Assembly: GCF_003790525.1 (NCBI RefSeq)
Contig: NZ_CP033635.1
Strand: one strand, 5' to 3'
From: Escherichia coli
GTDB taxonomy: Bacteria; Pseudomonadota; Gammaproteobacteria; Enterobacterales; Enterobacteriaceae
DNA: 64,000 nt
This document shows, in pieces, positions 7,402 through 9,524 of the stretch. A program made the translations under genes and the position numbers. Position 1 is the stretch's first letter, and the number at the start of each line of letters is the position of its first letter. Under the pieces are notes generated by a model that saw only the letters and a program-made list of their open reading frames with translations, searched no databases and was not told the DNA's origin.

Positions 7402-7611
7402 ATGAGTAGCATCAATGACCTGAACACAGCTGACACAAACGGCGGATCCGTTCATCTGGACGCTAAAACAGTAATGCGCATCAAGCAGTACAGAATAGAT
7501 CACGCCGTTAATCTACCCGCGCAGCCATTGCCAGGTGTGGCGCAAATTGTCAGACACGCAGTTAACGCGTGGCTTGATAAGAATGGTTTTGCATCTGGGG
7601 GTGAGCAATGA
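7402..7611 (+). CDS. Hypothetical protein (69 aa) coupled to the capsid gene
   Basis: Track ORF; AGGAG upstream; stop overlaps the next start. Confidence 0.5.
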   Translation: MSSINDLNTADTNGGSVHLDAKTVMRIKQYRIDHAVNLPAQPLPGVAQIVRHAVNAWLDKNGFASGGEQ

Positions 7612-9524
7612 ATCGCTGGTACACCATTAAAGCGGCGGATGTTCGCGGAACGGCGGAGATATCCATCTATGAGGAAATTGGTGGCTTTGGTATTACCGCG
7701 AAGCAGTTCACGGAAGACCTGAAAGCCCTTGGCGATGTTTCACATATCAATCTGCGGATCCATTCACCAGGTGGCGACGTGTTTGAAGGTATCGCCATCT
7801 ATAACCTGCTACGGAATCATCCGGCAGACATTACGGTTTATATCGATGGCGTGGCGGCTTCAATGGCTTCGGTCGTCGCAATGGCTGGCGATCGCGTTGT
7901 TATGCCGGAGAACGCCATGATGATGATCCATAAGCCGTGGGGTATCTCTGGCGGAAATGCTGGCGATATGCGTGATTATGCTGATTTGCTGGATAAGGTG
8001 GAAACAGTGTTAATCCCTGCTTATGCCAGAAAAACAGGAAAATCAGCACAGGAAATTGCCGCCATGCTGGAAGATGAAACCTGGATGGACGGGAAAGAAT
8101 GCCTTAAGCACGGTTTTGCTGATGAATTGTTGCCATCTGTCAGAGCAATGGCGCGAATTGAATCGAAACGCACAGGAGATTTTTTACATATGCCGGAAAC
8201 CATTAAGGGAATGATTACCCCGCCGAAATCACAGGCAAAAAACACCATTACAGGCTACCAGGAGCGCATTAATGGCATTAAAGAAATTTTTAGCATGTTC
8301 GGCAACCAGTACGACGGGATCAAAATGTCGTGCCTTGAAGATGCATCCTGTACGCTGGAAATGGCCCGGGAACGTCTGCTTAACGAAATGGGTAAAAACC
8401 ACACACCAACAAATAAAAATATCCCGTCTCATATTTATGCCGGAAACGGGAACATAACAGGCGATGCGATTCGCCAGGGCCTTTATTCTCGTCTTGGGTA
8501 TGAGCGTTCTGAGCGTGGCAATCCTTACGCGATGATGAGCCTTTTTGAAATGGCCCAGGCGTCACTGGTTGATCGCGGTATCAGTGTTGGCGGTTTTTTA
8601 AATCGCTCGCAGGTCGTTAATGCAGCTTTTACACACAGCAGCAGTGATTTTTCTCATATTCTGGCTGGCGGTGCTGAAAAATCAGTGCTGAAAGGCTGGC
8701 AGGACAGCGGTGAAACGTTCCAGAAGTGGACGCGTAGCGGTTCACTTTCAAACTTTCATGAAGCAAAGCGCGTTGGTCTGAATGGATTTTCAAAGCTGGA
8801 TAAAGTGCCGGAAGGCGCCGAATACAAATACATCACCACCAGCGATAAAGGTGTGCCTATTGCGCTGGCAACATACGGGAATATTTTTTCTGTTACCCGC
8901 CAGGCCATTATTAACGATGACCTGACCCAGTTAACTACAATCCCCATGGCGATGGGGCGTGCAGCCGCCAGAACAGTAGGTAATCTGGTGTATCTCCTGT
9001 TAACCGGCAATGGCAAATTCACGGATGGTAAGGCGCTATTCCATGCCGATCATAAAAATCTTATTGCGAAGGATATGGACATGGAGGGGCTTAACGAAGC
9101 CCGTAAGCTGATGCGCCTCCAGGAGGACGCTAACGGCGATTCGCTGAATATTACCCCTGCATTTGTCCTGGTCCCCGCCGCGCTGGAGTCTGCCGCACAT
9201 CGCGCCATTCTGTCATCGTCATCACTCTTTCCGGTTGATAGTGAGGGCACTATCAATCAGAACCCCGGCATCATTAACGTGGTGAAAGATATGGCTGAGG
9301 TTATTGTTGAGCCACGTCTTGATAAGAACAATAACAAAGAGTGGTATGTAGCCGCAGCGAAGGGGATGGACACGATAGAGGTCGCTTATCTTGATGGTAT
9401 TGATACGCCATATCTTGAGGAACAGGAGGGCTTTACTGTTGATGGTGTCGCCTGGAAGGTGCGCATAGATGCAGGTGTTGCAGCTCTCGATTATCGTGGA
9501 CTACTGAAATCGAGTGGAGCATGA
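7608..9524 (+). CDS. Fused prohead serine protease (ClpP/S49-like) and HK97-fold major capsid protein
   Basis: 638 aa; N-terminal protease motifs (IHSPGGDVFEG, GVAASMASVVAMAGDRV, MMIHKPWG); C-terminal 350 aa capsid-like by composition and pattern. Confidence 0.75.
   Translation: MNRWYTIKAADVRGTAEISIYEEIGGFGITAKQFTEDLKALGDVSHINLRIHSPGGDVFEGIAIYNLLRNHPADITVYIDGVAASMASVVAMAGDRVVMPENAMMMIHKPWGISGGNAGDMRDYADLLDKVETVLIPAYARKTGKSAQEIAAMLEDETWMDGKECLKHGFADELLPSVRAMARIESKRTGDFLHMPETIKGMITPPKSQAKNTITGYQERINGIKEIFSMFGNQYDGIKMSCLEDASCTLEMARERLLNEMGKNHTPTNKNIPSHIYAGNGNITGDAIRQGLYSRLGYERSERGNPYAMMSLFEMAQASLVDRGISVGGFLNRSQVVNAAFTHSSSDFSHILAGGAEKSVLKGWQDSGETFQKWTRSGSLSNFHEAKRVGLNGFSKLDKVPEGAEYKYITTSDKGVPIALATYGNIFSVTRQAIINDDLTQLTTIPMAMGRAAARTVGNLVYLLLTGNGKFTDGKALFHADHKNLIAKDMDMEGLNEARKLMRLQEDANGDSLNITPAFVLVPAALESAAHRAILSSSSLFPVDSEGTINQNPGIINVVKDMAEVIVEPRLDKNNNKEWYVAAAKGMDTIEVAYLDGIDTPYLEEQEGFTVDGVAWKVRIDAGVAALDYRGLLKSSGA

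Follow-up and report, generated by a model that had tools for sequence, protein, structure and literature searches.

The window analyzed here, a 64-kb stretch of E. coli DNA, carries a gene encoding a prohead protease fused to a major capsid protein, and this locus raises the question of what a phage head gene does in an element without a portal, a terminase or tail genes. The initial annotation of the locus offered two answers: either a helper phage supplies the element with portal and packaging machinery, or the shell serves something other than a virion, as an encapsulin-like compartment or an interference decoy.

The ORF at 7608..9524 (+ strand) was confirmed with an ATG start and encodes a product of 638 aa. 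The proposed union of a ClpP-type protease and an HK97-type capsid protein in one polypeptide was borne out by several searches. Pfam placed CLP_protease at residues 31–175 (E 1.4e-35) and Phage_capsid_4 at residues 337–635 (E 3.6e-53), PHROG 133 matched over the full length (E 2.5e-285), and the product scored 907.6 bits against NCBIfam NF045540, ‘ClpP-like prohead protease/major capsid protein fusion protein’, a family of phage head proteins with a curated cut-off of 475 bits. The ClpP nucleophile S85 (within GVAASMAS) and H108 (within MMIHKPWG) are invariant across the 37 homologs aligned. A helical segment at approximately residues 216–335 separates the protease from the capsid domain and probably provides the fused protein with a scaffold function of its own. 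Foldseek returned ClpP matches alone for the full-length model, and the C-terminal half gave only marginal matches to PDB sequences (a capsid protein, E 0.0015; Mu GpT, E 0.09); the C-terminal part was therefore modeled separately. The resulting AlphaFold model of residues 283–638 (pLDDT 82.5, pTM 0.80) retrieved HK97-fold shells only from the PDB (probability 1.00, E 4e-8 to 2e-6), comprising encapsulins, which ranked top, and phage capsids. The N-terminal part matched ClpP structures with target TM values of 0.72–0.80.

The gene is located in a 10.8-kb island delimited by 26-nt direct att repeats, namely the attL core (CGGTGTAGTTAATGGTGTAGTTAATT, 162..187) and its exact repeat, the attR core (10978..11003). 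The island occupies the roxA–phoQ interval, as in E. coli GF60, with roxA itself falling outside the window on the left. Integration was into an intergenic att site, no tRNA target being detected by a tRNA scan, and the same site holds an island in other strains too. Immediately inside attL lies a tyrosine integrase gene (188..1438, +; PHROG 1 integrase, E 1e-72) with 98.7% nt identity to the integrase annotated in locus L001; its RefSeq homolog begins at the position equivalent to 209. It is followed by genes for an AlpA-family excisionase/regulator (1813..2001, +; PHROG 2790, E 1.3e-17; AlpA annotated in L001) and a RepA-family replicative helicase, the pri-rep equivalent (4075..5481, +; PHROG 2850, E 3.8e-188; PHROG 906), whose counterparts in relatives carry the annotation ‘helicase RepA family protein’. 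A putative replication origin (5480..5680), recognized by its position and by AAAGTGAG iterons of either orientation surrounding an AT-rich core, fits the PICI layout described in PMC6092414, in which ori lies immediately 3′ of rep. Further downstream are a single-stranded DNA-binding protein gene, ssb (6294..6704, +; PHROG 44, E 1.5e-40), and a gene for a PerC-family regulator (6715..6987, +; PHROG 994/10396; PerC annotated in L001 and L002), which is the last gene ahead of the late cassette. Near the right end lies a conserved terminal PICI ORF of 94–99 aa (9954..10253, +; PHROG 1561), also found at the 3′ end of L001, L002, L004 and L005 and without a Pfam or NCBIfam match.

Of the characters by which PMC6092414 defines PICIs, those readable from sequence were all recognized: an integrase at one end with att repeats at a specific chromosomal site, alpA downstream of int among co-oriented genes, an own replication initiator with a (putative) origin immediately 3′ of it, a size within ~10–20 kb without lysis, tail and most head genes, and carriage of the helper cos, here as three cosN-like sites with terS absent. 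The backbone is 96–99% identical to that of other PICIs occupying the same att site. This sequence anatomy (int, alpA, RepA with an iteron ori, ssb, PerC and a late zone) places the island among the classical Gram-negative PICIs, in the EcCICFT073 type. It is not helper-embedded, its flanks being chromosomal (the roxA side and phoQ) and the remaining window being ordinary chromosome. The segment 19200–44000 of the window is low in GC yet is ordinary E. coli chromosome. P4-like CI/C4/isrK RNAs were sought in the island with Rfam, without a match at gathering thresholds.

To what extent the capsid gene is solitary was assessed within the island and across related loci. Scanning all other island ORFs against PHROGs and NCBIfam identified the integrase, AlpA, an Icd-like repressor, YlcI/YnfO-like and DUF4222-like proteins, the RepA helicase, SSB, a PerC-like protein and ORFs without a named family; all assigned genes lie on the + strand except the YlcI/YnfO-like ORF. 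No lysis, tail, portal or terminase family was found among them, in agreement with the initial annotation that the island holds no other virion gene, and tblastn detected neither a second capsid homolog nor a resident helper in the 64-kb window. In most relatives of the island the capsid gene is followed at once by a small-terminase-like gene, annotated as ‘terminase small subunit’ or DUF1441. This TerS/Rpp-like gene is missing here, the present island having lost what its relatives retained.

A recent deletion of portal and terminase genes is not what the related loci point to. Among full-length phage-type loci, the fused gene follows immediately after a portal gene in 38 of 40, and terL/terS and tail genes are usually close by; the two exceptions are L049, which has no portal match, and L020, which is cut by a contig end. 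Satellite-type loci have a neighborhood of their own, with RepA or a primase and a 69-aa ORF upstream instead of a portal, and 124 E. coli genomes have the satellite type over at least 80% of the module. This portal-less context and the number of carriers show that the solitary state is stable. In several satellite-carrying E. coli genomes the gene was found in one place only, with no prophage-type second copy among the matches listed; co-residence with a helper thus does not appear to be the rule in carrier genomes.

Next, the flanks of the capsid gene were compared with phage packaging sites. The cos site of the helper group is present three times in the island, one copy having a complete helper-type cosB. 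The capsid cassette (6994–9641) is bounded by cos repeats. Its left boundary (6994..7251, +), common to L004, L005 and L006, consists of a terminator (6994–7011) followed by cos1, with a cosN-like sequence at 7048–7059 and the helper-type cosB. This region is colinear with the cos of the L006 helper prophage, positions 7019–7251 having 88.8% identity to the cos-to-terS region there, and runs into the RBS and first three codons of a deleted terS. The right boundary (9532..9641, +) is a terminator hairpin followed by cos2, whose cosN (GGGCGGGAGCGT, 9586–9597) coincides with phage genome ends: in the linear records of Tritos and cdtI the first base is the exact equivalent of 9586; of this pair, Tritos was the one examined for the head gene, and it encodes the fused type. 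The third copy, cos3 (9785..9945, −; cosN 9915–9904), is inverted, shares an 86-nt inverted repeat with cos2 and has a cosB of a second lambdoid type, with 92% identity to the sequence upstream of the DUF1441 terS in the Qin-like prophage L007.

Islands of other strains with this backbone at the same att site have a cassette for a lambda-E-type capsid and decoration protein instead; the fused-type cassette has been swapped into the shared backbone. The closest relative of the present cassette (98.3% nt) belongs to a satellite embedded in a prophage terL, and that prophage has its own portal, terminase and fused head gene. Within the cassette, the capsid gene is preceded by a 69-aa satellite-specific ORF (7402..7611, +; PHROG 4934, unknown function), which overlaps the capsid gene start by 4 nt, so that the two are possibly translationally coupled. 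Every enterobacterial satellite copy of the fused gene has a homolog of this ORF immediately in front of it, whereas phage loci have none. The ORF has no Pfam or NCBIfam match and resembles neither the W-like gene of phages nor the small ORF in the lambda-E-type cassette; it might be ribbon–helix–helix-like. As regards transcription of the capsid gene in a chromosomal, non-embedded island, two terminators (6994–7011 and 7278–7294) lie upstream of it and a promoter scan of the + strand between them and the gene revealed no consensus sigma-70 promoter.

The fused gene has 57–59% amino-acid identity over its full length to the single head-shell gene of a group of lambdoid phages comprising mEp213, mEp043, mEp460, Tritos, VT1-Sakai and other Stx phages, together with related prophages; identity to the protein of the L006 helper prophage is 59%. 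In the tree, satellite copies form one old, monophyletic clade that is as deep as the phage clade. All nine satellite copies, from six enterobacterial genera, are intact. The dN/dS of the fused gene against other E. coli satellite copies is 0.12–0.15, and 0.025–0.08 in the capsid domain; satellite copies (omega ~0.03–0.15) are as constrained as two phage copies compared with each other (0.09). Both protease and shell are thus under strong purifying selection. The alignment further revealed that the protease–scaffold linker spans 23–24 aa in 9/9 satellite copies versus 40–75 aa in 27/27 phage-type copies, the satellites being short by ~27–30 residues of a Pro/Ala/Gln-rich tether. In an independently branching solitary copy from Halioglobus this tether has 28 residues. 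Satellite copies also have a 7-aa loop insertion (LFPVDSE) in the capsid domain at residues 540–551, and the annotated N-terminal extension that overlaps the portal gene in phages is absent from them.

Several known systems resemble the present one in part. EcCICFT073-type PICIs (PMC6092414; PMC6739421) share the order int, alpA, Icd-like/DUF4222, rep with a downstream iteron ori, ssb and PerC, followed by a late zone in which a lone capsid gene is accompanied by several cos sites and the conserved terminal ORF. They differ in their late cassette, which combines a lambda-E-type capsid with a gpD-like decoration protein rather than a fused ClpP-protease/MCP, and in having an Rpp/TerS-like gene; EcCICFT073 has a diverged cosB read by an Rpp–TerS complex, whereas cos1 of the present island has a helper-type cosB. 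According to PMC10111431, no late gene is more frequent in Gram-negative PICIs than the capsid gene, which 21 of 29 reference PICIs carry, and PICIs with a CLP_protease late gene have already been described. The closest cassette to the present one belongs to a helper-embedded PICI; the island studied here lies at a chromosomal intergenic site rather than in a helper late gene or tRNA-Ile2. A keyword search of the same text returned neither the satellite linker deletion nor the loop insertion. The lambdoid fused protease/MCP genes (NF045540) have the same three-part architecture and invariant Ser/His, but lie in phages after terS–terL–W–portal and before the head–tail and tail genes, while the satellite gene stands alone with its shortened tether, additional loop and missing N-terminal extension.

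Ccm of SaPIbov5 (PMC5052747; PMC8569155) is likewise a satellite homolog of a helper HK97-fold capsid protein, encoded by a cos-packaged island without portal or terminase; the relation of the present product to the L006 protein is of the same kind. Ccm comes from a Gram-positive system and has no fused protease, and its pentamer occupancy and small isometric heads have been demonstrated, whereas the present protein is known from its sequence. Finally, cf-PICIs (EcCIEDL933; bioRxiv 10.1101/2022.09.08.507074) share the int/alpA/rep front end and an own HK97-fold head protein and protease, but also encode a portal, head–tail connectors, HNH, TerS and TerL and steal tails only; none of these was detected in the present island, nor an own portal, head–tail connectors or large terminase in the window.

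Taken together, we are highly confident that the fused gene is the late-zone capsid gene of a PICI dependent on a lambdoid helper. It appears to derive from the all-in-one head gene of the mEp213/mEp043/mEp460/Tritos/Stx group, which unites protease, internal scaffold and shell, and to have been adapted to the satellite. Portal, terminase and tails are almost certainly borrowed from such a helper, as judged from the identity to its head gene and the three copies of its cos site. Of the two original answers, helper borrowing is therefore the one strongly supported, by the PICI anatomy, by the coincidence of cosN with phage ends and by the closest cassette lying in a helper terL. When a helper of matching head type is induced or infects, the island would excise and replicate, the helper terminase would cut and package its DNA at cos, and helper tails would finish the particles. 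The satellite protein would be made late, would assemble on the helper portal, alone or mixed with helper subunits, and would then be self-processed by its own ClpP-like protease, yielding heads usable by the satellite or heads unusable by the helper. The shortened tether and the extra surface loop are candidate determinants distinguishing satellite from helper shells.

We consider it an even question whether the satellite gains productive heads through this product, and slightly favor the whole chain that leads from a satellite-adapted all-in-one head gene through helper mobilization to heads usable by the satellite or unusable by the helper. Ccm provides the precedent, being a satellite-encoded capsid homolog that enters capsids (PMC8569155). 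Several observations speak against it: interference persisted when EcCICFT073 c1499 (the lambda-E-type capsid gene) or c1500 (decoration) was deleted (PMC6092414), and loss of the capsid gene left transfer unchanged too; PICI capsid genes are reported to be dispensable for transfer (PMC10111431); EcCICFT073 DNA is packaged at phage size (PMC6092414); the present island lacks the TerS/Rpp-like gene that its relatives use; two terminators, but no consensus sigma-70 promoter, precede its capsid gene; and several carrier genomes showed no prophage-type second copy among the matches listed. In the literature searched, no experimental function for E. coli PICI capsid genes was found after 2019.

The length of the tether invites another reading, possible but unlikely, in which small shells (T=3 or T=4) form on the helper portal from the linker-shortened protein acting as its own scaffold. 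Such shells would hold one or two 10.8-kb island genomes but not a helper genome of 42–46 kb, and one gene would do in minimal form what capsid-forming PICIs and Ccm do. The tether is short in every satellite copy and in Halioglobus, islands with the fused cassette measure ~10.4–10.9 kb, about one quarter of the helper genome length, and by our arithmetic a (3/7)^1.5 volume scaling would give ~12 kb for a T=3 shell; Ccm and cf-PICIs do make small heads from their own HK97-fold proteins (PMC8569155; bioRxiv 10.1101/2022.09.08.507074). However, the heads that carry EcCICFT073 are phage-sized, its DNA probably being concatemeric (PMC6092414; bioRxiv 10.1101/2022.09.08.507074); at 43.4 kb, a run of four copies of the present island would also suit a full-size head, so that island size does not discriminate; and a dependence of T number on tether length is without structural support in the fused family. 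It is a little more doubtful still that the satellite protein amounts to a complete head kit in one gene, with a lower triangulation number imposed by the shortened tether, giving the island small capsids of its own with helper portal, terminase and tails. If true, it would bridge the gap between the theft of whole virions by classical PICIs and the theft of tails alone by capsid-forming PICIs, and the short tether of the marine Halioglobus satellite would represent convergent evolution of a size determinant.

The interference or decoy function raised at the outset is conceivable, though we rate it as rather improbable. The protein would co-assemble with the helper’s 59%-identical head protein and poison or divert helper heads, lowering the helper burst in defense of the host or the satellite while being unneeded for the satellite’s own transfer. 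That level of identity makes mixed assembly plausible, PICIs generally interfere with their helpers (PMC6092414; PMC6739421), and an island without Rpp/TerS, the known interference factor of its relatives, might profit from a substitute. Yet deletion of the EcCICFT073 capsid or decoration gene left lambda interference intact (PMC6092414), and conservation of the protease active site and the whole capsid domain exceeds the needs of a poison subunit.

It is quite improbable that the gene is a passive captured late gene, carried along after recombination with a helper or kept as a spare copy for helper-embedded satellites, and functionless in the present chromosomal island. Late genes have been proposed to be captured in clusters and then mostly lost (PMC10111431); the terS remnant in the cassette, the helper-embedded position of its closest relative and the tolerated EcCICFT073 knockout (PMC6092414) would fit such a history. 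The intact state of all nine satellite copies under phage-like constraint and a satellite clade as deep as that of the phages oppose it, and the shared satellite-specific indels point to adaptation rather than decay. A non-virion, encapsulin-like shell or a degraded-prophage remnant left after portal and terminase loss is highly improbable: encapsulins are the top C-terminal Foldseek matches and other virion genes are absent, but the HK97 fold is common to encapsulins and capsids and does not discriminate, while the sequence belongs to a curated phage head family at 57–59% head-gene identity, maturation protease and scaffold are retained, the gene lies between cos sites with no adjacent cargo gene recognized (the neighboring ORFs being without a recognized family), and intact att repeats, an own replicon and a PICI backbone nearly identical to others at the same site are not prophage debris. 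An encapsulin-like role is accordingly not supported.

The novelty implied by the initial annotation does not stand: solitary capsid genes in Gram-negative PICIs have already been published (PMC6092414; PMC10111431; PMC10085698), and the island is in this respect routine. New here are the satellite-only clade, the shortened linker, the cos-bounded cassette and the loss of the TerS/Rpp-like gene in this island. The satellite-adapted head gene bears on why a capsid gene of helper origin, and exactly one, is retained by the majority of Gram-negative PICIs; in the only deletions made so far no phenotype was seen. Its comparative signature, a deep satellite-only clade with purifying selection on protease and shell, an always-shortened tether and an extra capsid loop, offers a concrete variant testable with the cultured helpers mEp213, mEp043, mEp460 and Tritos. 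The cos-bounded cassette further suggests how PICIs swap head modules to follow helper head types, which bears on predicting which prophages, including Stx phages, mobilize which islands.

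The 638-aa product of the ORF at 7608..9524 (+ strand) had been read in the initial annotation as a ClpP-like protease joined to an HK97-type capsid in one polypeptide, and Pfam, NCBIfam and structure models agree on this architecture. Residues 31–175 were assigned by Pfam to CLP_protease (E 1.4e-35) and residues 337–635 to Phage_capsid_4 (E 3.6e-53), accompanied by weak Mu gpT-like matches. The protein scored 907.6 bits against NF045540, 'ClpP-like prohead protease/major capsid protein fusion protein' (curated cut-off 475 bits), and PHROG 133 covers its full length. A PDB sequence search matched residues ~42–180 to ClpP, which was also the Foldseek return for the full-length AlphaFold model (pLDDT 77.4). 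In this model, linkers of low confidence set off a helical middle (helices between ~216 and 335) from a ClpP-like N-terminal domain on one side and an alpha/beta domain at the C-terminus on the other. Residues 283–638, modelled apart (pLDDT 82.5, pTM 0.80), matched HK97-fold shells only, i.e., encapsulins and the capsids of phages phiXacJX1, FCWL1, LME-1, D3 and PhiTE (probability 1.00, E 4e-8 to 2e-6), an outcome that favours the capsid assignment of the C-terminal half. The ClpP nucleophile S85 and H108, residues originally quoted for the protease, are unchanged in all 37 homologs.

Exact 26-nt direct repeats (162–187 and 10978–11003) delimit a 10.8-kb island that contains the fused gene. 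The island is flanked by phoQ (11084..12544, − strand) and, at its other end, by the roxA side of the chromosome; the same site carries an island in E. coli GF60. The island encodes an integrase, AlpA, an Icd-like repressor, YlcI/YnfO-like and DUF4222-like proteins, a RepA-family helicase, SSB and then a PerC-family protein. An iteron-rich segment with AAAGTGAG in both orientations (5480–5680) immediately follows rep at its 3' side, a 69-aa ORF (7402–7611) shares 4 nt with the beginning of the fused gene, and a conserved 99-aa ORF is the last of the island. None of the island ORFs matched a portal, terminase, tail, lysis or separate scaffold family, in keeping with the earlier statement that the island holds no other virion gene, and a tblastn search across all 64 kb of the window gave no further capsid homolog. 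No tRNAs were found, and Rfam gave no hits in the island. Judged from sequence, this anatomy matches point by point that of Gram-negative phage-inducible chromosomal islands (PICIs) as defined in PMC6092414, and the backbone (1–7017 and 9860–11100) is 96–99% identical to annotated islands of PICI type. The island is a further case of a described class, in which a solitary head gene is already known: PMC10111431 describes PICIs with a CLP_protease gene as targets of a helper-embedded PICI.

Several local features were recorded alongside. The gene for the PerC-family regulator (6715–6987) immediately precedes the late cassette; a connection to LEE regulation has been described for PerC-like proteins encoded by E. 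coli PICIs (PMC11773190). Two overlapping ORFs at 3241..3480 and 3446..3712 match positions 1–76 and 72–145 of the 154-aa PHROG 2512 profile; together they are probably one frameshifted early gene, whose equivalent in GF60 is one 151-aa CDS. Between the last ORF of the island and attR, ~700 bp are non-coding and contain a 44-nt direct repeat (89% identical, 10386–10429 and 10798–10841). Because the segment between its copies is absent from the related island L002, a local duplication or insertion is suggested; the region is possibly old att-site debris. Outside the island, the window consists of ordinary chromosomal E. coli DNA. A low-GC stretch (36–43%) at 19000–29000, downstream of icd, was rejected as a prophage, its content (autotransporter adhesin, bluF, pdeG and others) being conserved, chromosomal and present in most E. 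coli genomes.

The phage collection yielded 80 full-length matches to the fused protein at ~56–57% identity; all of the matches listed are lambdoid coliphages or Stx-converting phages, including mEp213, mEp043, mEp460, Tritos, Ayreon and VT1-Sakai. In mEp213 the order is terS, terL, a W-like gene, portal, fused head gene and tail genes, and in phages of this type the fused gene is the sole shell gene. The cos-like core GGGCGGGAGC(G/A)T occurs three times in the island: cos1 (core 7048–7059, +; copy 7011–7092) and cos2 (core 9586–9597, +; copy 9549–9641) are direct repeats on either side of the capsid cassette, and the inverted cos3 (core 9915–9904, −; copy 9860–9945) forms with cos2 a convergent 86-nt inverted repeat. 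A cos2 query recovered mostly phages also found among the fused-head-gene matches, plus some of unexamined head type. For Tritos and cdtI, the linear genome record begins at the equivalent of 9586, which directly indicates that the sequence of this core is cosN; the mEp460_4F5 record begins five bases before it. Multiple cos sites are also present in EcCICFT073, a characterised E. coli PICI (PMC6092414; PMC6739421).

The cos1 region (7019–7251) is colinear with a prophage cos region at 88.8%, and the match extends over the RBS and the three initial codons of the prophage's DUF1441-type terS before ending at a terminator. At 7232–7294, the RBS and GTG TCA AAA remain of terS (ATG TCA AAT in the helper prophage), directly followed by the terminator hairpin; this remnant is the scar of a terS-through-portal deletion when the cassette formed. 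The inverted cos3 matches the cos-to-terS spacer of another, Qin-like prophage. The cosB regions of cos1 and cos3 are of two different lambdoid prophage types, which might widen the helper range. The proposal that portal and packaging functions are borrowed from a helper phage is strongly supported by helper-type cos sites, PICI anatomy and kinship with helper head genes.

Islands at the same att site encode a capsid of lambda-E type together with gpD-like decoration and small-terminase-like proteins; homology to these islands ends at 7017 and starts again at 9860, and homology to fused-type cassettes spans 6994 to 9641. Because both junctions fall within cos-like repeats, the late zone likely acts as an exchangeable cassette with cos repeats as crossover sites. 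Such a swap would explain the convergent cos2/cos3 pair and the missing TerS/Rpp-like gene, which most relatives keep. The nearest relative of the cassette, in E. coli EC42405 (98.3% nucleotide identity over 6994–9641; protein 99.2%), belongs to a satellite that interrupts the terL of a prophage with its own DUF1441 TerS, portal and 675-aa fused head protein (59% identical to that of the satellite). This arrangement is the helper-embedded PICI configuration described in PMC10111431, where late genes are also proposed to be captured from helpers.

The solitary state of the gene is not a recent deletion. In a species scan with one genome per species (64 loci, classed by tblastn markers), 38 of 40 full-length homologs at 41–57% identity had a portal directly upstream, at ~1.5 kb in most phage-type loci and at a greater distance in L043; as a rule, terL/terS preceded and tail genes followed. 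The exceptions were L049, with no portal match, and L020, cut at a contig end. Homologs at 72–79% identity (Trabulsiella, Yersinia, Buttiauxella, Kluyvera and Citrobacter) had no portal or terL between the replication genes and the capsid gene. RepA or primase lay upstream in four of these five, neither marker being detected in Buttiauxella; the 69-aa ORF had a homolog in all five, and two were embedded in prophages. The alternative that homologs always accompany a portal and terminase, lost here by deletion, does not hold for the satellite lineage, in which 9/9 copies are intact. The satellite-type module was present over at least 80% of its length in 124 complete E. coli genomes, ~196 E. coli records had a copy at ≥90% nucleotide identity, and 2224 of 5426 E. 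coli genomes carried some family member, mostly prophage copies at 60–80% identity.

A neighbour-joining tree (variable linker excluded, midpoint rooting, no bootstrap) placed all enterobacterial satellite copies in one clade, sister to enterobacterial phage copies. The copy of the marine gammaproteobacterium Halioglobus japonicus (47% identical) lies on a separate deep branch outside this clade and may reflect an independent capture; it resides in a small int–alpA–RepA element (5474–12293 of locus L045) with no other virion family detected. The cassette of the window does go back in the end to a phage late region minus terS-to-portal.

An alignment of 37 sequences revealed changes specific to satellites. 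The Pro/Ala/Gln-rich tether between protease and helical domain (invariant P196 to R220) measures 40–75 residues (mostly 49–55) in each of the 27 aligned phage-type copies, against 23–24 in every one of the nine satellite copies from enterobacteria and 28 in that from Halioglobus. A capsid-domain loop (residues 540–551, low-confidence in the AlphaFold model) bears a 7–14-residue insertion in enterobacterial satellite copies (LFPVDSE in the window). Phage annotations start ~17 residues earlier, overlapping the portal gene, which may be an annotation choice. The 69-aa ORF is confined to satellites and absent from phages. A small ORF also precedes the lambda-E-type capsid (9335–9541 in the annotated island L001, 1-nt overlap); these 68–69-aa ORFs of the two cassette types abut or overlap the capsid start, with no detectable mutual similarity and no Pfam family.

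Together, our results show a PICI with helper-type cos sites and a conserved copy of the helper's head gene, a copy that is apparently functional. The island would be induced by a lambdoid helper that shares its cos and head type, and the TerS/TerL of this helper would act at cos1, where a cosB of helper type is retained, as fits the lack of Rpp, the TerS-partner interference factor of relatives. The fused protein would be made, assemble on the portal of the helper, either by itself or together with helper subunits, and mature by its own protease. We regard it as an even prospect that it takes part in productive head assembly. This reading is weakened by the deletions in the E-type cassette, which gave negative results, and by the unexplained transcription route past two terminators at 6994–7011 and 7278–7294.

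Within head assembly, redirection of size via the shortened tether is a minority possibility. Ccm of SaPIbov5, a satellite capsid homolog of proven role, sits in pentons and forces small isometric heads (PMC8569155), and capsid-forming PICIs carry full head modules, also of proven role (bioRxiv 10.1101/2022.09.08.507074); the DNA of EcCICFT073 is packaged at phage size (PMC6092414). Four copies of the island (43.4 kb) would be enough to fill a head of helper size, and a single copy would fit a T=3-sized shell; island size by itself does not discriminate between them. Pure interference with the helper is somewhat more doubtful. In relatives, both interference and preferential packaging are ascribed to Rpp (PMC6739421). 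A passive passenger is improbable because of the selection data: Nei–Gojobori comparison of the window gene with two other E. coli satellite copies gave dS ~0.30 and omega 0.12–0.15 overall, 0.08–0.12 in the protease domain and 0.025–0.08 in the capsid domain (0.09 between two phage copies). An encapsulin-like or prophage-remnant identity is very remote; encapsulins share the fold with phage capsids, and the gene sits in a PICI.

Our literature search found no function assigned to E. coli PICI capsid genes. The residual interest of this island lies in that function, for which the shortened tether, the inserted loop and the bounding of the cassette by cos repeats form a testable signature.
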